Shown: in pieces, positions 10,561-50,163 of the stretch | Layout: each line of letters starts with the position of its first letter | How positions within the stretch are numbered: the first letter of the stretch is position 1 | Source of the DNA: Trichormus sp. ATA11-4-KO1 | Lineage (GTDB): Bacteria; Cyanobacteriota; Cyanobacteriia; Cyanobacteriales; Nostocaceae | DNA length: 64,000 nt | Assembly (NCBI GenBank): GCA_019358915.1 | Contig: JAHHIM010000055.1 | Span: forward strand, 64,001-128,000 | Direction: 5' to 3' | Notes under the pieces: generated by a model | Told to the model about the DNA's origin: nothing | The model's database searches: none | What the model saw: only the letters and a program-made list of their open reading frames with translations | Made by a program: the position numbers and the translations under genes

Positions 10561-11481
10561 ATGACCAGTCAGAAAACTCAATCAATAACCCTAAAAATTG
10601 CTGTAGTTGGAGATGTTCACGACCAATGGGAAGTAGAAGATGGCATTGCACTCAAGCATCTGGGTGTTGAATTAGTGCTGTTTGTCGGTGATTTTGGCAA
10701 TGAGTCGGTGGAAGTAGTCAGAGCGATCGCCTCCCTCGATATTCCCAAAACAGCAGTAATGGGAAACCATGATGCCTGGTACACTGCCACAGAATGGGGT
10801 CGGAGGAAGTGTCCTTACGACCGTTCTCAGGAAGATTGGGTACAGGAACAACTTGACTTATTGGGACCGGCCCATGTTGGTTACGGTAAGCTGGATTTTC
10901 CCGAGTGGAATTTAACTGTCGTGGGAGGTCGTCCTTTTAGCTGGGGTGGCCCGGAGTGGAAATTTGCGGAAATCGTTCAAGAACGGTATGGTGTGACAAG
11001 TCTGGAAGCATCTGCTGATCGCATTGTCAAAGCAGTAAAAAGCGCCGCTTATGAGACGATTATTTTTCTGGGTCACAATGGCCCTAGTGGATTAGGCGAT
11101 CGCCCCGAAGATCCCTGCGGTAAAGACTGGCATCCTATAGGCGGTGACTTTGGTGATCCAGACTTGGGTGAGGCGATTTCTCAGAGTCTCACTGCTGGTA
11201 AGACCATTCCTCTGGTGACATTCGGTCACATGCACCGCACCCTCAGACATACCAAGAAAATACAGCGCAAGGCTGTTTTTAGAAGTCCAGAGGGGACAAT
11301 TTACTTGAATGCGGCAACTGTGCCCAGAATTGTGGAAAATGAGGGTGAGAAACTGCGTAATTTTTCGATTGTTTCCCTAGAGGCGGGTGAGGTTTCCCAA
11401 GTCTCCCTAGTTTGGGTAGGCAAAGATTTCCAGGTGACCTCAGAAGAAATTTTGTACGAGCGTTCACGTAGTGTGTCGTAG
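10561..11481 (+). CDS. Calcineurin-like metallophosphoesterase (TIGR04168/DevT-like)
   Basis: GDVH, VGD, GNHD, HNGP, GHMH metal-binding motifs. Confidence 0.85.
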   Translation: MTSQKTQSITLKIAVVGDVHDQWEVEDGIALKHLGVELVLFVGDFGNESVEVVRAIASLDIPKTAVMGNHDAWYTATEWGRRKCPYDRSQEDWVQEQLDLLGPAHVGYGKLDFPEWNLTVVGGRPFSWGGPEWKFAEIVQERYGVTSLEASADRIVKAVKSAAYETIIFLGHNGPSGLGDRPEDPCGKDWHPIGGDFGDPDLGEAISQSLTAGKTIPLVTFGHMHRTLRHTKKIQRKAVFRSPEGTIYLNAATVPRIVENEGEKLRNFSIVSLEAGEVSQVSLVWVGKDFQVTSEEILYERSRSVS

Positions 11482-13048: not shown

Positions 13049-13707
13049 CTTGTGTGATATATTTATAGATATTGCCATAATTAATTATAATTAAAACACT
13101 GAGTAGAAAATAAATTCTTGTTCTTTTTGTTTAGATAAATTGAACTTTTGTAATTATTCTAAATTCCCAATTTTATTGCTACTTCAAGCTGTATCGACGA
13201 GATAATACCCGTTTTTTGTTTTATAAATTTCCTAATGTATTAGGGTATACCGGGATAAATCAATATCAGCTTTTATGCGATTTGGACACATCCCATAGGA
13301 AGATGACTAACCACAAAAATAATAGGTAAATTAATCCGGGATGTTGTTATGCACTGGATTTATAGTGAGGTTTGGTGATGAGCCAAACCTCTTTTATTAT
13401 TCCTATATAAAAAATATTTGGATAAATTCAAGAAAATACAGGAGAGAGAGGGCAAACCCCATACAGAAATGTAGAGTCTTGATATCAGGGTAAGCGGATC
13501 TAATTTTGTAGTGCAACATTTCATTTGATTTAAGAATTTCTCAAGAAATGCTGGTAAGGAACATAGAATTTTTCTGTAAATTGACTTAAAAAAATCTAGT
13601 TAGGGAAGCTTATCTTAAAATCTTCTAGGCAATATCATCAAAGCGGGAGTATAAAAGAAACAATAACAAGCAAAACATACTCTCTGGCTTAACTGAGAAC
13701 TACAATA

Positions 13708-41581: not shown

Positions 41582-41992
41582 ATGTTTGGTTTAGGTATTG
41601 CTAAGACGGCTTCAGGTATCGCTAAGACGGTAACAGGTAAGGTAAAGGATTTTAGGGGTGTGCTTGCTACTAACCCAGGGGCTTTAGGGTTAGCGCTACC
41701 ACCGCAAGTGCAACTTGGCATTAATGTAGCAAACTCCCTGGGACTTAAAATACCTTCGGCAGACGTGCTGAGTAAGCAAGTGATGTCGGAGTTAGACAAA
41801 GCAGTATTCGGGTTGTATCGTCCTAGCACTAAAGACCTTCTCAATGGTCTTAAAGGTAGAGTTAGCACTACCCCTGGATTAGACCAGTACTTGGAACAGT
41901 TAAGAAAGTCGGGTAACAGTACCCTAGATAAGATAGAAGAGGCTACCAATACCGCAGAAGACCTCCTATCATCTATTAACTGGTTACTTTAA
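41582..41992 (+). CDS. Phage hypothetical protein (probably late/virion)
   Basis: 136 aa; preceded by TGACTGAATA motif at 41549. Confidence 0.55.
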   Translation: MFGLGIAKTASGIAKTVTGKVKDFRGVLATNPGALGLALPPQVQLGINVANSLGLKIPSADVLSKQVMSELDKAVFGLYRPSTKDLLNGLKGRVSTTPGLDQYLEQLRKSGNSTLDKIEEATNTAEDLLSSINWLL

Positions 41993-42559
41993 CATCCACT
42001 GGGTATCCTTAAACTCAAACATCCTAGGCTTGTTACCCCACTGTGATACGTAAGCCATCCATACCTCACCGTGTATATTTAAATACCCGCAGTGAGGTGT
42101 ATTAGACTTACTATCGGGGTATATTTTTTTACACAACTCCTGGATATGGTGCCGTACTTTAGCTAAGTTATGTAGCTTTTCGGTGATGTGAAAGCTCACA
42201 TACTCGGATAAACCAGGTTTAAGTTTACCGTTTTCATAACCACCATACCTTACAAGGGTTGCTTGTCTAGTTATCTCCCGTGTTTCTGTTTGGTAGAACT
42301 TACTGGCAGCAGCTAACCTGTGACATGCAGGTACTACTACCTCTATGTAGTGTTTTATCCACCATAGGCACTGCTTATAAAATCGTACTTTTTTAGTGTT
42401 ACCCCGATTCTCGTTTAGTGTGGTTAGATCGGCGTACTTATCCCATATTTGGTGAAGTTTGGCTACTTTATTTTTATCCTTCTTAGCCGCTTGTACAGCC
42501 CCCCGGATGTCTAAGGGTAGCTGACCCCAGTTAGTATCATTCTCATTGTTACGAGTCAT
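41984..42559 (-). CDS. Basic hypothetical protein downstream of the ncRNA unit
   Basis: 191-aa ORF starting 23 nt after the tRNA-like RNA on the same strand. Confidence 0.65.
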   Translation of the reverse strand: MTRNNENDTNWGQLPLDIRGAVQAAKKDKNKVAKLHQIWDKYADLTTLNENRGNTKKVRFYKQCLWWIKHYIEVVVPACHRLAAASKFYQTETREITRQATLVRYGGYENGKLKPGLSEYVSFHITEKLHNLAKVRHHIQELCKKIYPDSKSNTPHCGYLNIHGEVWMAYVSQWGNKPRMFEFKDTQWMLK

Positions 42560-42581
42560 TTGTTAACCCAATAAATATTAA

Positions 42582-42657
42582 TGGAGCTAAAGGGAATCGA
42601 ACCCTTGTGCTAATGGTTTCACTTTGGCTTTACCACTAGACGACACCTACTAGCCCC
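42582..42657 (-). ncRNA. tmRNA tRNA-like-domain-only RNA (alanine acceptor, no D-stem, no tag ORF)
   Basis: GGGGCTA-GTAGGTGTCGTC-TAGTGGT-(14-nt loop)-ACCATTA-GCAC-AAGGG-TTCGATT-CCCTT-TAGCTCC-A; G3-U70, A73, canonical T-arm. Confidence 0.7.
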
Positions 42658-42665
42658 TTAGTGCT

Positions 42666-42702
42666 TAGTGATTTAAAGTAGCCCGAATACTTTAAACCAC
42701 TA
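42666..42702 (-). other. 15-bp hairpin separating the large RNA from the tRNA-like RNA
   Basis: TAGTGGTTTAAAGTA-TTCGGGC-TACTTTAAATCACTA; its one non-WC pair is G-U only on the minus strand. Confidence 0.7.
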
Positions 42703-42704
42703 GG

Positions 42705-43287
42705 CTATACCTTGACCCAGCCTCACCTCTAGCTTGGCTTTCAAGTCTCGGTATATTCACCTTTGGTTTTCCTTGGCTTTACTCAGGCTAGAGGACACTG
42801 AATAAAGACTTACTTGGTAGACCTTAGGTACTTTGTAAATGTAGATGATTTTTTAGGTCGAAGTCTACAGCTCCTTGACTTATGCGGCAAAGCGTCAACC
42901 ACTTTTACGTCCCCCGCTAACGGCTACTTACGTAAGCAGCTACCGCCCATGTATGAAAGTTCTGAGTACTTTGCCCTTATCGTGGGCTACTCTGAGAGTA
43001 CCTTATTTTACTAGCATTAATACTCCCAACGCGCTAGTGTCCCCTGAGTTATTTAATGACCGACAGGTTAGGTCTAATAGCGCTACCTGTAGTTGAGAGT
43101 ACAGGCTTTACGGTTAGCTGAGGCTCTGTCTTTGTCTTAGATTTGGTAGTCTAACCAGCCCTACTAATCCCCAACCGTAAATATTTGCTTTATTCACATC
43201 CAGACTCTGTAGCTCTCGCCGTTCTTTGATGTGGAGGGGTCACCAAACCCTCGCGCGCTATATGAGTTAGATTTCTCTCCCTCACCC
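42705..43287 (-). ncRNA. Large (~580 nt) highly structured non-coding RNA, ROOL/GOLLD-like
   Basis: Own promoter, no credible same-strand ORF, many local and long-range helices (43171-81/43107-17, 43228-33/43195-200, 42997-43003/42826-32, 42864-69/42840-45, 42787-94/42726-33, 42750-55/42706-11). Confidence 0.65.
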
Positions 43288-43291
43288 TTTT

Positions 43292-43320
43292 ATAATAACA
43301 AGGTTTTCTAAGACTGTCAA
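43292..43320 (-). promoter_or_regulatory. Sigma70-type promoter for the ncRNA unit
   Basis: Minus strand TTGACA(43320-43315)-17 bp-TATTAT(43297-43292). Confidence 0.7.
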
Positions 43321-43338
43321 CCCTATAATGAAAAATAT

Positions 43339-45504
43339 TTATTCCACTGGTGCGCCACCTATAACCGAGTTTAATCGTGTGCCCAACTTCTTGAAAATAT
43401 TAGCCGGGTTCTGAGCTACCCCGTTCTTTAGAGTCTCGAAGTGGCAATGGTCACCGCTACCTATTCCAGTACTACCCATTGTGGCAATCTGTTGCCCTTT
43501 CTTTACTTGCTCTCCTAACTTGACCAATAGTGTCGTGTTATGTAAATATCTGGTAGCCCAGCCGTTATCATGTCGGATTTTAAGCATATTCCCGGCTCCT
43601 CCTTGGAAGCCTATAGGTGCTACTACTACCCCGTCTCTAGCCGCATAGATTGGGGTACCTTTTTTATTAGCAATATCTATCCCCTTGTGGTTTCTACTAG
43701 CCCCAGGGATACCTGTGTTTCTCAGTCCGAACCCTGACGTTACCGTACCCGTACAAGGATATACCCAAACACCTGGGGTATCCGGTACGTTATTCTGCGG
43801 CATGGGCGCGTTAGGGGTATCGGCGGGCGTGTTATCCAGTACCTCTACCGGGCTGTACACATCTAAGGTAGAGGTATCAGAGGCTAACTTATGCGTTACT
43901 TTGTCGACTAACCAAATACGATCTAAGGGGCTAGGGAAACCTAGAGTACGCACTCCGTCCAATGGCTTCAATGGCATTGAAGCCGGGCTTAAGTTAACTG
44001 TAAACCTACTAGGTAGTCCCTTAACCCTCTTAAACCTAGACCTACTCTGATTTAATAATGCGTCCTGACCTGGACTAGGAGTCCCTGATATAACTTTAGT
44101 CTGGTTACCCGTAGCTGATATGTCTCGTGCTGGGTCTACGTCGATGTTCTTAGTTAGCATTTCCCCGGTTAGCGGTTCTACAGTTGCCTTAGGCTCCTCT
44201 TGAAGTAAACTAGACTCTTCCTGGTTTTTATCTAACGCCTTATCTACTACCTCATACTTGATAAGGTTACCTTCACGGGTTATCGTAAACCCTGTATCAT
44301 TTATTTTGTCCCTGGATTTAATAGTTAACGCCCCGTTATTCTCCGACACCCATAGTCCCGCATAGTTAGCCTCACGGATGAGTAACTGGTAATCGCTAAT
44401 ACCAGATTGGTCTATGTGTTGGTACAACGGGTCTAGAGTAGACTGCCAGTCTAACTTTATCTTATGGGCTTCTGCGATCGCTTGAGCTAGCTGTCTTAGG
44501 CTGGTATCCTTAACCGTCTTATTACGTTTCCGGCGGTTAAGTACCCACCGGATACCTTGCCCCATGACTTGAGTTTTACCTGTTTCATCCCACTTAGTAC
44601 CTTGATGGAAGAACTCGAAACTCACCCCGCACCAGTCGATGATTATTTTATTACCCTTGATAACCTCTTGTACGGTTTCAGGGATACTAGGGCGTAACGC
44701 GGATATGTCAGGTTCTACCTTAGTAGCTACAGGGGTTACTGTAGAACCTTTGTTATAAAATGCTAATCGTTCGTTATAGTATGCTATTGCTGCATCCACT
44801 GTCCAACCCGTCTGCTGTTCAGCAGCACCTGGAAGGCTAGTCCATTCATTCCTGCCTCTTCTTATTGCTTCTCGGATATCCCCAGCCAGTAAAGGCGCTA
44901 TCATCTTACGCTGACCCATTAACCAGAATGCGGCTCTATCCTGGGACGTGGGTAGGAAGTCCTTGAACTTACCAGGGTTCCTAGACTGTATATAACGCCA
45001 GGTCTTAGGTATAATCTGATACCTCCCGGATGCCCTTGTCCATTGAGTGATGGAAGTGGGATAACCTTTGGCGGCTTCTGCTTCTGTAAACCTAGTGTTA
45101 TTTATTCCTGTAAAGTACCATTCACGGGTTATTTGGAAGCTAAAGTAACCCCCAACCTCCCTAACAGCTATCATGTCCAGAAAAGCTTTAACCTGCGGGG
45201 TAAACGGTTCCCCGGTAGACTCTACGCCCACGTTACCATTACCGGGGGTTACTTTAGATGATTCAGGTGCCTGGTTACTGATTACGGGGCTATTATTAGG
45301 GTTAGGGGTTAACTGTCGGATACCCCCGGAGTTTATAGTATGGCTAATCAAAGCTGATGCTATTAAGCCTAGGGGGTCGGATAAAGTAATCATACAGTTA
45401 CTAGATTTATCATTTTGCCCAAGCGTTACTTCCAGGTCTATGAGTTCGTTCTTAGGCTTCCAGACCTGCCCAAAACCCTCTAAGCTAACCTCTACATCCC
45501 TCAT
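43339..45504 (-). CDS. Baseplate hub (late control D/gp27-like) with inserted lysozyme domain and C-terminal M23 peptidase
   Basis: FLDMIA..E, ASGRYQI..TW, SQDRAA, EWTSLPG (lambda-type muramidase); IDQSGISDYQLL (GPD-like); HKGIDI, YLH, HCHFE (M23). Confidence 0.82.
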   Translation of the reverse strand: MRDVEVSLEGFGQVWKPKNELIDLEVTLGQNDKSSNCMITLSDPLGLIASALISHTINSGGIRQLTPNPNNSPVISNQAPESSKVTPGNGNVGVESTGEPFTPQVKAFLDMIAVREVGGYFSFQITREWYFTGINNTRFTEAEAAKGYPTSITQWTRASGRYQIIPKTWRYIQSRNPGKFKDFLPTSQDRAAFWLMGQRKMIAPLLAGDIREAIRRGRNEWTSLPGAAEQQTGWTVDAAIAYYNERLAFYNKGSTVTPVATKVEPDISALRPSIPETVQEVIKGNKIIIDWCGVSFEFFHQGTKWDETGKTQVMGQGIRWVLNRRKRNKTVKDTSLRQLAQAIAEAHKIKLDWQSTLDPLYQHIDQSGISDYQLLIREANYAGLWVSENNGALTIKSRDKINDTGFTITREGNLIKYEVVDKALDKNQEESSLLQEEPKATVEPLTGEMLTKNIDVDPARDISATGNQTKVISGTPSPGQDALLNQSRSRFKRVKGLPSRFTVNLSPASMPLKPLDGVRTLGFPSPLDRIWLVDKVTHKLASDTSTLDVYSPVEVLDNTPADTPNAPMPQNNVPDTPGVWVYPCTGTVTSGFGLRNTGIPGASRNHKGIDIANKKGTPIYAARDGVVVAPIGFQGGAGNMLKIRHDNGWATRYLHNTTLLVKLGEQVKKGQQIATMGSTGIGSGDHCHFETLKNGVAQNPANIFKKLGTRLNSVIGGAPVE

Positions 45505-45955: not shown

Positions 45956-46500
45956 GAGGCTAACTCCTCTGCCGCTACTTTCAGGTCTTCAGTAGTATGA
46001 TTAGATACGAAAAAACCACGATTAGAACGTACCCACAAACTATCAAATATTTCTCTCTGGTATTCATCCGACTTCATAGCAGTTATACCTGGTCTATTTA
46101 TCCATACGGGTATAACCTCTATTCCTTCATCTAAAAACTTAAGTATAACATACATCTCTGTAAAGTTACGGGTATCGGTTAAGATAACCGTGCGAGACAT
46201 AAGCATCTGTTTTATTAGCTTTGTTACCTTTCTGGTCATCATGTGAGGGTCGATCTGAGGAAAAAACTCAAAAGCTTTTACCATTACGTCTAGGTAACTA
46301 ATATCCGTACCTGGTAGCTTTTCTAACCGCTTCTCTGGGTCATCTAAGAAACCTGCGGGTAAATCATAGACCATTTCAAACATATCTTTCATCGGTCTAG
46401 ACCACTTTACATTAGCTGCTCTTATCAGCTTTTGCATTTCCCGGCACAGCGTATCTTTACCTGCGCCTGAATAACCCATTAGTACATAAATACTACTCAT
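45952..46500 (-). CDS. Deoxynucleoside monophosphate kinase-like P-loop protein
   Basis: GYSGAGKDT Walker A, PMK, ILTDTR..E motifs. Confidence 0.8.
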   Translation of the reverse strand: MSSIYVLMGYSGAGKDTLCREMQKLIRAANVKWSRPMKDMFEMVYDLPAGFLDDPEKRLEKLPGTDISYLDVMVKAFEFFPQIDPHMMTRKVTKLIKQMLMSRTVILTDTRNFTEMYVILKFLDEGIEVIPVWINRPGITAMKSDEYQREIFDSLWVRSNRGFFVSNHTTEDLKVAAEELAS

Positions 46501-46614
46501 CTATTATCTCCTCCTGCTAAGTCAAACTTTGCTATCCCACCAGTAGGGACTACGTCCTGTCATGTTATTCTCTGTAAGAATAAAGGTTGACTATCACTGT
46601 CAACCTAGTAGCGT

Positions 46615-46794
46615 TTACCAAATAACTATAGAATCTTCATCCTGATCTATATCCGGTGAATATTCCCAAAGAGCGTTCCAGAAAGGGTTATTTTCTAACT
46701 CATTCCGGAATCCTTCAGGGACTTCTAGCTCTAGTTCCGCTTCTAACTCGGCTTCTATCTGACTTTGGCTAACTTCTGACCCGTATCCTAGCAT
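46615..46794 (-). CDS. 59-aa highly acidic early protein (not in ORF track)
   Basis: MLGYGSEVSQSQIEAELEAELELEVPEGFRNELENNPFWNALWEYSPDIDQDEDSIVIW; GGGAG RBS; own promoter at 46853. Confidence 0.6.
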   Translation of the reverse strand: MLGYGSEVSQSQIEAELEAELELEVPEGFRNELENNPFWNALWEYSPDIDQDEDSIVIW

Positions 46795-46884
46795 CTGTTT
46801 AGCTCCCTTTTGCTTATGTATCTATAATAGCTTGGGTTGACCTTAACTGTCAACCCTAAACTATATCTAGGATTGTGTGCTATT

Positions 46885-49800
46885 TTATACTAACATACTT
46901 AGTAACTGGCTAGGGGTTACTGTGTAACCTATGGGTAACCCTTGGGGCTGGCTAGGTGTTATTTGGGGGTCTTTAGGGTCTTTACGGAGGCAAAAAGGGT
47001 CTACGTCTACCGCAGAAAACCAAGCTACACCCGCCGGGATACAGTCTAACGACAAGGCGTCAATAAATGCGGCTCTAACGTATAAGTGGGCTAGTTGTAA
47101 TGCCCAAATAGCATTTCTGATGTTATTGGGGTCATCTCCCACCATCGTCCTAATCTCATCGTGGATGGTTATCAGAAGTTTCCCGTCTACTCCTAGTTTC
47201 TTATAGAAGTGTCTAGTTAGTAGGATTAACATATCTCTGAAGTCTACACCGGAACTCTGAATAGTCCAGTTTACTCTAGATGGTTTGAAGTCTTTAAACC
47301 CTGCTAGTGACCTACTCATTACATTTTTGAGTAAAGGTGTCTTGGGTACCTTGGAGTCCGCTATGGATTCCATAACGTTAAACGAATCCGATGCTAACCC
47401 CCCTGTGTACCTCTTGAAGCTTCCTAACGCCCCTTCTTCCCTTACGGTTTGACCCTTGAACTTATTGATAAATACTTTACTGTTAGCCTGTGCCTCAGCT
47501 AATGTCATTGTGGGGATGTTCTTTAGAAGCGCGTTAGTATCCCCGGTTAGCCCCTGTCCATAAATGCAGTTACCTGTGATAGTTATTGTGTCACCTTGAC
47601 GCATAACCCAAGTACCTAAAGCTGTAGTAGGACACCATACGGATGTGTTCTCAATGCGAGTTTTAACTAACCTCTGAGCAGTTATGTGCGGCTTGGTTAA
47701 GTTCATTTTTTGGACTTTATTACCGTATCTTGTACCAACAGAAACTCTGTAACCAATCAAATAAGCCGCTAGTTTAAAAGCTTCTGCATGATGCCCCATT
47801 TTCTGAGTTATGCACCAAGTGCCAGTGGCTCGATCTTGATGTCCATCACTAAGTAAAACCCCTAATACAAAAGATTGTAGCTCCCTGTAAGACATTTTCA
47901 GGATCTCCGGTATGTAGTCTGTGCCGTATTTAACCCCAAAAGACTTAAGACCATAACCTGAGCCGCCATTATAAGGGGCTGACACGGTTATATTATTTTC
48001 TTGTTTTATGTTATCTGTGGTGAATATCTGAAATATTGTGTATCCTTCCTTAACTCCTAGCTTCCTTACACGCTTAGACCCATACCATCTGTGATCACCT
48101 GTGCAAACTACAGACCACCCATGACTCATTTCTAACTTATACACCTCAGCGTCTTCGTGATATGTCATATGGGTTATAGGAGACCATTCATTAACCCCTG
48201 TTTCTGCGTTGTAGGCTAATATTTCTGTCCCATGAGATAACTCTGAGTAAACCCTCCAACCTTCTCTAGTCAGCGCTTGAGTATCCATTGGAACACAACC
48301 ATACACCCTGGTCTTAGTATTGTCTCTACTGATACCAGTCTCTTTCGCCATTAAGCTATGAATGTCTGTGGACGCTTCTAAGGTCTCAGCCTTAGCCCCC
48401 GCCACACAAATAAAGCCCATAGGAGTACTTGCATTAATACCTAACACTGAATCACCCATAATGCCCGCTAACCACGCTTCTTCACTGTCAATGTCCGCAC
48501 CTACAAGCACATAACCTTTAGGTGGGGCTACCATAGATTTAAGCTCGGTACCTAAGCGAGACTTTTTAGGGTTAGCCGCTACCTGCCAAAGGTTGTCGGC
48601 ACATCTCCCTGTTATGGTGCCGTTAACAAGTAACGAGGGTAGGGTGACAGGGAAACCTTCAGGCGATTCAGTATGGATGGCGGCTACTCGTTTACGTAAA
48701 CTTACCCAGTTTATTGTAGACACCTTTTCAGCTAACATCTGCTTTACTGAGTCATTAGCCGCACTAAGTACACCCTGTTCAAACGCTGCAACAAAGCCCT
48801 TAGCGAACACGGAGGTAACGTTTTTACCTCTAACTTCTGGATGTGGTAACCACCCGTGTACTTCTGTGTACCATGTTTTATTTTCATCATCCCAGAGCAA
48901 AGGCTCACCCCGCCAAGTTATCCCCATTACTATGGGCACAAAGCGCTTAGATAAGGTTAGGTCACCTTTGGCATAGTCAGATAGCACTTTACGGTACCAA
49001 GCGGGTAACCCTTTATTCTTCCCTGACTTCGCCGGATTCCAGTCTAACGCCAATGCTGGCTTAGGTAGGTTATCAGGGTCACACTGGGATAGGTATTCCT
49101 CCGCTAAAATCATCAAGTCTTTGTTAGTCTTTACGGCTAACTCTTGATACATATTCTCTGCGGTCTCGTAATACTTAGGAAACCTATCAGCATCTAAAGG
49201 TAACCAGCACGACCCTAATAAAATAGACCCGGACTGCGCGACTAAGCTAGGTCTATGGTTAAGGTACTCAGGGTAGAGTCTCTTGAATAGCTGTGCTGTA
49301 TGTAGCACATCTTCACAGCAATACCTGATAACCTCCAGCATGTTATCCCTAACCCAGGGTAGCCCGTCATTAACTATGTTATCTCTAACCCCTTTGTCTA
49401 GTGGTTTGTTAAAGAAGAACTCGTATACCGCAGATAAGCTGTTAGTTGCTGTCTCGCCCATCCAGTCTAGGTTAGTATCTTCGTCTAGATACAAGGGTCT
49501 TTGCTGGTTACTTAAACCACGGCATATTATCCACGCAGACATTAGGTCGAAGAATCGGTTACCCGTATCCTCCATCTGGTACTCAGATGATAAATAAGCT
49601 CTGTCATACTGAGTGTTGTAGTTTACCATTAGGTTATTAAAACCGTAGGGGATAATAGAGGGCATCTGGTCGAAGTCGGTAACCCAAAGTAGCCAACCCC
49701 TAGCAGACATAGCCACAGCGCAAGTAGGTAACCACCTATCCCCCACTTGCACCGTTTCAGTATCTTGGAAGAACACCTTCCCAGATATTGGCTTTTCAAG

Positions 49801-50163
49801 GAGTTTCCATCGCTCACCTTTAGGGCACCAGTATTGCCATTTCCCTTTAATGGTATTGAAGTTAGTGGGTAGTTCTGGGAACTCCCAAGACATAATAGAA
49901 CCTAACGCGTCAAGAGTACTCTTAGTATGTTCTGCGATCGCTTGCTCCAGTTCTTGTTCCAGCGTACCAAAGTTATCAGGGATAGGTAGTTCTGCAACTT
50001 CGTTATTGTCATTGGCTTGATGAAGCCCGAACGGCTTTAGTTTATTTTCTATTTTCTGTTTATCTAGAATACTTAAGGGATTTGAAGGGTAACCCAATAC
50101 CCTTACTTGAAGATCATCGGAAAGCTTTTTAATGTGCATTGGTAATCCTGGTTTATACAACAT
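46885..50163 (-). CDS. Family A DNA polymerase, mitochondrial Pol gamma-like, with intein
   Basis: DTET, NTQYDRA exo motifs; GTITGR, LGTELKSMVAPPKGYVLVGADIDSEE (motif A), SRVNWTIQSSGVD, TIHDEIR (motif C), FSAVDVD..LRK parallel Pol gamma. Confidence 0.92.
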   Translation of the reverse strand: MLYKPGLPMHIKKLSDDLQVRVLGYPSNPLSILDKQKIENKLKPFGLHQANDNNEVAELPIPDNFGTLEQELEQAIAEHTKSTLDALGSIMSWEFPELPTNFNTIKGKWQYWCPKGERWKLLEKPISGKVFFQDTETVQVGDRWLPTCAVAMSARGWLLWVTDFDQMPSIIPYGFNNLMVNYNTQYDRAYLSSEYQMEDTGNRFFDLMSAWIICRGLSNQQRPLYLDEDTNLDWMGETATNSLSAVYEFFFNKPLDKGVRDNIVNDGLPWVRDNMLEVIRYCCEDVLHTAQLFKRLYPEYLNHRPSLVAQSGSILLGSCWLPLDADRFPKYYETAENMYQELAVKTNKDLMILAEEYLSQCDPDNLPKPALALDWNPAKSGKNKGLPAWYRKVLSDYAKGDLTLSKRFVPIVMGITWRGEPLLWDDENKTWYTEVHGWLPHPEVRGKNVTSVFAKGFVAAFEQGVLSAANDSVKQMLAEKVSTINWVSLRKRVAAIHTESPEGFPVTLPSLLVNGTITGRCADNLWQVAANPKKSRLGTELKSMVAPPKGYVLVGADIDSEEAWLAGIMGDSVLGINASTPMGFICVAGAKAETLEASTDIHSLMAKETGISRDNTKTRVYGCVPMDTQALTREGWRVYSELSHGTEILAYNAETGVNEWSPITHMTYHEDAEVYKLEMSHGWSVVCTGDHRWYGSKRVRKLGVKEGYTIFQIFTTDNIKQENNITVSAPYNGGSGYGLKSFGVKYGTDYIPEILKMSYRELQSFVLGVLLSDGHQDRATGTWCITQKMGHHAEAFKLAAYLIGYRVSVGTRYGNKVQKMNLTKPHITAQRLVKTRIENTSVWCPTTALGTWVMRQGDTITITGNCIYGQGLTGDTNALLKNIPTMTLAEAQANSKVFINKFKGQTVREEGALGSFKRYTGGLASDSFNVMESIADSKVPKTPLLKNVMSRSLAGFKDFKPSRVNWTIQSSGVDFRDMLILLTRHFYKKLGVDGKLLITIHDEIRTMVGDDPNNIRNAIWALQLAHLYVRAAFIDALSLDCIPAGVAWFSAVDVDPFCLRKDPKDPQITPSQPQGLPIGYTVTPSQLLSMLV
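47569..48297 (-). mobile_element. Intein (243 aa) in polymerase motif B
   Basis: YG|CVPMDTQALTREGW ... TGDHRW (block B) ... VWCPTTALGTWV ... TITGN|CIYG; LAGLIDADG-like FVLGVLLSDG. Confidence 0.9.

Follow-up and report, generated by a model that had tools for sequence, protein, structure and literature searches.

The closest described relative of the RNA considered here is that of mycobacteriophage DS6A, for which a transfer-messenger RNA (tmRNA) reduced to its tRNA-like domain (TLD) is in print in two papers (PMC4131195, PMC11915505), both of which, in their accessible text, cite Mao et al. 2009 for this TLD-only RNA. The same text describes strong inhibition of tmRNA by a TLD-like molecule, with titration of SmpB as a possible cause (Hudson, Lau and Williams 2014, PMC4131195), and inhibition of the endogenous tmRNA in E. 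coli by the DS6A form (PMC11915505). Organelles are also reported there to have tmRNAs lacking a coding sequence (CDS-less), i.e. those of jakobid mitochondria and the ~65-bp forms of Mallomonadaceae plastids (PMC11915505). The DNA compared with these systems is a stretch of 64,000 nucleotides (nt), referred to as the window, from the cyanobacterium Trichormus sp. ATA11-4-KO1 (contig JAHHIM010000055.1, positions 64,001 to 128,000), in which a prophage carries on its minus strand a gap without a credible open reading frame (ORF). This gap probably holds one RNA gene, for a DS6A-type TLD-only tmRNA of 76 nt, here called the mini-tmRNA, at the end of a long untranslated leader that would be transcribed from a host-type promoter.

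The original prediction for this locus, made from the sequence, had proposed a new system of three parts (a large structured RNA, an alanyl tRNA-like RNA and possibly a partner protein) for which no description in a cyanobacterial prophage was known. In the accessible text of PMC4131195 and PMC11915505 the type of the tRNA-like RNA is already in print for DS6A; literature searches found the TLD-only phage form described for that phage alone, and no mention of a TLD-only tmRNA in cyanobacteria or in tRNA arrays. What is new here is a cyanobacterial prophage member of a known RNA type, and not a new three-part system.

Anatomy and identity of the mini-tmRNA

The mini-tmRNA lies at 42582-42657 on the minus strand, the orientation of the surrounding genes, and its identification as a tmRNA reduced to the tRNA-like domain, of the DS6A type, is well supported by sequence comparison. 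The acceptor stem, GGGGCUA/UAGCUCC, has 7 bp with G3:U70 and a discriminator A, which together give alanine identity. The D-loop, GGUGUCGUC, is of the tmRNA type without a D stem, and the T arm, AAGGG-UUCGAUU-CCCUU, has a 5-bp stem and the loop UUCGAUU; both align to the tmRNA consensus and to the family described below, with U in place of one conserved A. Helix P2 has 8 bp and is closed by a 14-nt loop (42614-42627) that takes the place of the tag template and pseudoknots. None of the 20 pairs in the three helices is broken, and the gene does not encode CCA. The Rfam tmRNA model (RF00023) matches this RNA at 41.3 bits (expectation value, E, 7.6e-15) with both model ends aligned and ~300 central positions deleted, so that 10 nt of the mini-tmRNA stand where RF00023 has 304 positions. 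The prediction of a 76-nt alanyl RNA related to ribosome rescue is in this respect confirmed, in the form of a tmRNA tRNA-like domain without a tag template, by Rfam, by covariation and by an independent covariance model (R2, below).

Other identities were considered and rejected. An ordinary tRNA-Ala is disfavored by ARAGORN, which at default settings makes no call for 42582-42657, and by the Rfam clan competition, in which the tmRNA model beats the tRNA model; at an 80% threshold ARAGORN returns a spurious "tRNA-Phe(aaa)" for the mini-tmRNA. A tag-bearing tmRNA, with resume codon, tag frame and pseudoknots, was sought upstream, where no tmRNA-family match appears at E up to 10. A full tmRNA of the host itself lies elsewhere in the genome (391 nt, 133 bits) and, because its acceptor and T arm are different, the mini-tmRNA is neither a copy of it nor an attachment-site fragment. 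An attachment-site relic is in addition ruled out by the presence of both acceptor strands and by the position in the middle of the prophage, and real attP-type 3' fragments beside integrases, as in Validus and BetterKatz, look different.

A covarying family in phages and mobile DNA

A DNA pattern drawn from the D-loop and T arm, which replaced a first pattern that mostly matched ordinary tRNA-Ala genes, found five further viral contigs with the same architecture. A covariance model built from the window RNA and five viral contigs (model R1) then found a seventh member in a viral contig, identical in its acceptor sequence, which shares bases with the stop codon of a 535-aa ORF and has a terminator-like hairpin and U run after it. 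A looser pattern applied to 185,579 species genomes gave 12 loci, 11 of which match R1, nine of them at 50 bits or more; the nine lie in assemblies of Spirochaetaceae, Actinomycetota, Acidimicrobiia, Bacteroidales (two contigs of one bin), Saccharibacteria, Ilumatobacteraceae, Gemmatimonadetes and Pseudonocardia. R1 also recovers the published DS6A TLD-only RNA at JN698994 28478-28557 (61 bits, with the same loop motif), as well as unannotated copies inside the tRNA clusters of the Streptomyces phages LuckySocke (L133 1501-1578, 77.8 bits) and Shaeky (L134 1491-1569, 74.9 bits). Phages GiJojo and Alone3 gave similar candidate matches by blastn. Among 150 other Nostocaceae genomes, 18 have copies of 81 nt that score 46-58 bits with R1, including the following:

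L140-L148 (genomes G011, G490, G060, G518, G039, G468, G524, G005 and G017), positions 1501-1581, in L146 positions 1226-1306: 81-nt Nostocaceae copies

A second model, R2, leaves out the window RNA and uses 24 other members, taken from viral contigs, metagenome-assembled genomes, Streptomyces phages and other Nostocaceae genomes. It scores the window RNA at 76.2 bits (E 2.6e-17), compared to 27 bits for the tRNA-Ala of the window. Because R2 was built without the window RNA, its membership in the family is not circular.

The helices of the family covary. In the 24 members without the window RNA, 93.5% of cells are paired compared to 66.9% in shuffles (none of the 500 reaches the observed level), 14 of the 20 pairs change on both sides, and slid controls fall to 42-53% paired; for a 15-sequence set that includes the window RNA the values are 92.2% and 66.5%. 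Helix P2 covaries in seven of its eight pairs, and every aligned member of the two sets has G3:U70 (15 of 15 and 24 of 24). The alignments were fitted to the covariance model and hence are biased towards structure, but the effect is so large, and the slid controls fall so far below it, that the three helices are safe despite this. In the P2 loop the members share a conserved motif, AAA-N-CC...GG-A, often AAAGCCGCAYGCGGA, from which a mini-hairpin of 2-3 bp can form, with closing pairs that vary from CC/GG to GC/GC. The window copy is weaker in this loop, and it has U and C where most members carry the A and G of GAC/GGAC. Of the checks proposed with the original prediction, the search for homologs and covariation accordingly gave a strong result for the tRNA-like RNA and, as set out below, no homologs of the sequence upstream of it.

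Some of the other members are in tRNA clusters, some follow an ORF directly, and some stand alone. Four of six other viral loci have tRNA genes at most 2.5 kb away. There are two Nostocaceae subtypes: in the first, the three loci scanned for tRNAs are all within arrays of 12-20 tRNA genes, and the second stands alone, followed in three of five loci by a conserved 69-aa ORF and a ~240-aa ORF, the latter without a Pfam family. The 91 ORFs near 14 other members include ERF, SSB, PD-(D/E)XK nucleases, WhiB, sigma-70 region 4, ParA, thioredoxin and kinases, which is the setting of early or replication genes in a phage, and no ORF of the 91 matches SmpB. A comparable upstream RNA is found beside none of the 24 other members, contrary to the expectation that the three parts form a conserved unit. 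The TLD-only form is a covarying family that extends across phages and mobile DNA of several phyla, and most of it has no annotation, since programs that search for tRNA and tmRNA genes pass over it. In one locus (L094, 2042-2169) two sub-threshold matches to YrlA, a Y RNA-like family, were also seen (37.9 and 40.5 bits, gathering score 69), in the tRNA cluster just upstream of the TLD-only tmRNA of that contig.

The gap, its promoter and the untranslated stretch

The gap on the minus strand (42560-43338) runs from the stop codon of a 721-aa M23 peptidase gene (43339) to the ATG of a 191-aa ORF (42559), and contains or adjoins the following features:

43292-43320, minus strand: sigma-70-type promoter TTGACA-17-TATTAT, 11 of 12 matches, with extended -10 TG
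42706-43291, minus strand: untranslated stretch from promoter to hairpin, with no ORF above 31 aa, no fold excess and no homolog in the searches given below
42663-42705, minus strand: stable hairpin of 15 contiguous pairs with a 7-nt loop, -19.1 kcal/mol, z-score (z) -5.26
42582-42657, minus strand: TLD-only mini-tmRNA of 76 nt, 41.3 bits with Rfam RF00023 and 76.2 bits with model R2
41984-42559, minus strand: 191-aa ORF, starting 22 nt downstream of the mini-tmRNA

All of the landmarks named in the original prediction are in place, i.e. ~740 bp without a credible ORF, the TTGACA-17-TATTAT promoter, the 15-bp hairpin, the 76-nt RNA, and the 191-aa ORF shortly after it. On the minus strand of the gap stop codons are dense, the longest ORF with a start codon has 31 aa, and the longest stop-to-stop frame wholly inside has 41 aa; the plus strand has two TTG-start frames of 66 and 73 aa. 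A conserved protein-coding signal in these short ORFs had been named as grounds for refutation, and neither Pfam nor PHROG gave a match at E up to 1 for the frames tested on the two strands. An intron in the M23 gene is ruled out, the protein being full length relative to its 42% homolog.

Promoter sites that match the consensus in at least 11 of 12 positions occur 16 times in the window, compared to a mean of 2.45 in 20 shuffles, and 14 of the 16 are within the prophage part (22007-57889). Nine are on the prophage minus strand, preceding genes, and most of those in the prophage precede genes and match them in orientation; several stand only 15-30 nt ahead of a start codon, and another precedes a 59-aa ORF in the gap at 46500-46885. 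The concentration of these sites in the prophage, set against the number in shuffles, makes near-consensus promoters a genuine feature of this phage. The site at 43292-43320 is probably real, with a transcript start expected near 43285, and the promoter series suggests that the phage relies heavily on the unmodified host RNA polymerase. No terminator was found between this promoter and the 191-aa ORF, which leaves the description of the locus as an RNA-only unit unsupported.

The ~580 nt that separate promoter and hairpin had been described as rich in complementary segments and compared to the GOLLD and ROOL RNAs. Complementarity beyond chance is not borne out by the folding energies: the 576 nt at 43285-42710 have a folding energy z of -0.82 (40 shuffles), within the range of -1.93 to +1.06 of ten coding control blocks of equal length from the same phage, and ten sliding windows of 150 nt over 43340-42741 range from -0.80 to +0.45. 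Only the three 150-nt windows that cover the hairpin and the tRNA-like RNA reach z of -2.0 to -2.9. The value of -3.39 for the whole 716 nt (20 shuffles) is due to this 3' end, since the upstream 576 nt fold like shuffles. Over 42400-43500, none of 4227 Rfam families matches the upstream stretch at E up to 10, GOLLD and ROOL included, and the latter two also have no match in the window at their gathering scores; the Rfam check of the locus consequently returned the tmRNA match but neither of the two large RNAs. The stretch has no repeats or iterons of note and no second copy in its own genome.

Homologs of the 580 nt, self-matches apart, were likewise not found by blastn against 50,697 phage records, in 100 relatives, in five loci with homologs of the upstream M23 gene (28-51% identity), or by blastn and nhmmer in 139 fetched loci, and 388 other Nostocaceae genomes gave just chance or tRNA-Ala-like matches of 26-46 nt. 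The flanking proteins, when compared to IMG/VR and a metagenome collection, led only to a 100% identical contig and to the genome itself. As no homologs were found that could be compared for covariation, a lineage-specific function is possible. The simplest reading of the ~580 nt is a leader or spacer that has no structure of its own.

The hairpin is exceptionally stable (0 of 200 shuffles equally so), with arms of 18 nt that are 89% complementary and a 3' boundary 5 nt short of the tRNA-like RNA. Because a U tract is absent it is not an intrinsic terminator. Its arms are weakly like helix P2 of the adjacent mini-tmRNA, and the hairpin region as a whole (42658-42760, minus strand) resembles the 5' half of the mini-tmRNA, AGGU..CUAGUGGU...A.CA.UAAGCAC, with a local alignment score of 27 compared to 17.9 +/- 3.6 in shuffles (15 of 500 as high). 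This likeness may be the trace of an old partial tandem duplication.

The 191-aa ORF and the prophage

The 191-aa ORF, which is probably on the same transcript as the mini-tmRNA, matched only itself among 5.8 billion proteins, has no Pfam or PHROG family, and found no usable match in the Atlas. Single-sequence AlphaFold2 gives a mostly helical model of low confidence (predicted local distance difference test score, pLDDT, 64.6). The fold of SmpB is a beta-barrel, and the modeled protein appears unlike it. The suggestion that this protein is a partner of the RNA found no support in these searches or in the low-confidence model.

A tailed-phage genome occupies roughly 21.4-58 kb of the window and encodes baseplate, tail tube, major head and portal proteins, large terminase, endonuclease VII, two DNA methylases and a family A polymerase, together with the M23 peptidase, a tail or lysis protein. 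A 46.4-kb IMG/VR contig is 100% identical to it across the flanking genes and the aligned stretch. The phage DNA polymerase (46885-50163, minus strand) has a mitochondrial-type exonuclease domain (PF18136, E 5.1e-33) and, as a candidate seen by eye in the translation, an intein-like insert in the polymerase domain. A related prophage (L091, from G264:C66) has a weak group I intron match at 11139-11441 on the minus strand (30.6 bits, E 0.00068, gathering score 50), which sits between the two pieces of a split homolog of the M23 tail or lysis gene. In the host part of the window, 13338-13393 on the plus strand is a full-length match to the cyanobacterial heterocyst small RNA family RF02596 (87.1 bits), which fits a Nostocaceae genome, as do the relatives identified by sequence.

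Proposed function and alternative readings

To our knowledge all bacteria have trans-translation, and there are phages that need it and phages that it harms. It is established for tmRNAs and tRNAs that RNase P cuts the 5' end, that CCA is added, that AlaRS recognizes G3:U70 and that SmpB binds at the elbow. From the anatomy, family membership and family-wide covariation computed here we infer the transcription, processing, charging, SmpB binding and host effect of the mini-tmRNA as follows. Host RNA polymerase would start near 43285, transcribe ~630 nt, the hairpin and the mini-tmRNA and, having met no terminator, run on into the 191-aa ORF. RNase P would cut at the 5' G (42657), and the 3' end would be completed by a 3' endonuclease and the CCA-adding enzyme, as must also happen for the host tmRNA, whose gene is likewise without CCA. 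The 76-nt RNA would be charged with alanine by virtue of G3:U70 and A73. In this respect the idea of one precursor that is processed at the tRNA-like 5' end agrees with tmRNA biology, whereas the large structured RNA that was to be its second product is unsupported. The charged mini-tmRNA would then bind host SmpB through the D-loop/T-loop elbow and, lacking a tag template, would compete with the full host tmRNA, so that trans-translation, i.e. the tagging and destruction of unfinished proteins, would be damped or diverted during phage growth. By analogy with the published inhibitors, such a decoy is the favored function; the main alternative is tag-free rescue of ribosomes, as proposed for the CDS-less organelle tmRNAs, and the mini-tmRNA may also act as a processing signal that frees the downstream mRNA.

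Two readings would give the upstream sequence a larger part. That a single precursor yields a GOLLD- or ROOL-like ornate RNA and a rescue mimic, with the 191-aa protein as partner in a new three-part system, draws on the strong promoter with ~630 ORF-free nt behind it, on the z of -3.39 for the whole 716 nt, and on the stable hairpin near the RNase P site, which could shield the 3' end of an upstream product. However, this reading is very unlikely, since the upstream 576 nt and the sliding windows fold like shuffles and coding controls, no Rfam family matches, no homolog was found in phage records, 388 Nostocaceae genomes, the five M23-gene loci, the metagenome scan or the 139 loci, the other family members have no such neighbor, and the 191-aa ORF is an orphan. 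Even less should be expected of a split tmRNA, in which RNase P would free an upstream tag-template or regulatory RNA, its end protected by the hairpin, to act jointly with the alanyl tRNA-like RNA on stalled ribosomes; if true, the phage would replace the host degradation tag with its own tag or with none. A possible Ala-Ala tag, GCC-GCA-UAA, is present at 42888-42880, two-residue Ala-Ala tags are in print (accessible text of PMC11915505), and a resume site with a 15-residue tag at 43067-43020 is proposed by ARAGORN when its threshold is lowered to 60%. But GCN-GCN-stop is expected ~0.13 times by chance per 700 nt, the hairpin around GCC-GCA-UAA is unstable (z 0.33), neither candidate tag is conserved anywhere, and no tmRNA-family match is found outside the tRNA-like domain at E up to 10. 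ARAGORN gives no tmRNA at default or 80% settings, and its low-threshold tmRNA calls were discarded as noise, since at 60% it also calls a tmRNA on the opposite strand and labels both tags "not identified".

A further reading, unlikely though less so than these, is that the mini-tmRNA is a decaying relic and the gap junk from a lost tRNA cluster or partial tandem duplication, with no present function save perhaps to mark a processing site for the downstream mRNA. It would account for the score below the Rfam cut-off, for the departures from consensus at three conserved positions, for the absence from this part of the phage of the tRNA cluster in which other members typically are found, and for a hairpin in which helix P2 seems to recur in degenerate form (a likeness equaled by 15 of 500 shuffles). 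Against it, 20 of 20 helix pairs, the T loop, G3:U70 and discriminator A are all intact, R2 gives the window RNA 76 bits, more than would be needed and above the R1 score for DS6A, and a search upstream at E up to 10 gave no remnant of a tRNA. The probable reading is still that of a single TLD-only tmRNA gene behind a long leader, and a number of observations weigh against it. The RF00023 score of 41.3 bits is under the gathering score of 47, and five other viral members score 51.6-64.6 bits with that model. Compared to the family consensus, the RNA differs in three conserved places, with GUC instead of GAC, GCAC instead of GGAC, and an apical mini-hairpin that is weaker, and for this reason could bind SmpB poorly or be decaying. 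The promoter at 43292-43320 is the sole one of its series with ~630 nt and no ORF behind it, a length that is unusual for nothing more than a leader, so that a function may have escaped detection. Finally, the published inhibition experiments, as given in the accessible text of PMC4131195 and PMC11915505, used other molecules, in E. coli.

Comparison with known systems

The likeness of the window RNA to GOLLD and ROOL is one of setting only, i.e. presence in a phage near tRNA-type genes; for the 580 nt neither a match to either model, nor excess structure, nor a homolog was found. With canonical SsrA (RF00023), the host copy included, the mini-tmRNA shares the design of the tRNA-like domain and alanine identity, and presumably also the partners AlaRS, SmpB and EF-Tu and processing by RNase P, but it is without pseudoknots, resume codon and tag ORF. 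Like the CDS-less organelle tmRNAs, it has little beyond the tRNA-like domain and is still conserved. However, the organelle forms are the only tmRNA of their organelle and are thought to rescue ribosomes, whereas the window RNA is an extra, phage-borne copy; with a complete host tmRNA alongside it, interference is as likely as rescue.

The DS6A TLD-only tmRNA is alike in being phage-encoded and ~76-80 nt long, with a G3:U70 acceptor, tmRNA-type D-loop, T arm, and a P2 whose short closing loop has a motif of the AAA..CC..GG type, and in having no tag reading frame. The two differ in their hosts, one actinobacterial and the other a cyanobacterium, in the GUC and GCAC that the window copy has for GAC and GGAC together with its weaker apical mini-hairpin, and in their position, the DS6A RNA being in the short gp33-gp34 intergenic gap and the window copy ~630 nt behind a promoter. 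A small RNA with which a phage imitates no more of tmRNA than its tRNA-like end would be a compact way of tampering with trans-translation, and with members now found beyond DS6A the function of the family becomes testable in genetically tractable hosts such as Streptomyces, Mycobacterium and Anabaena.

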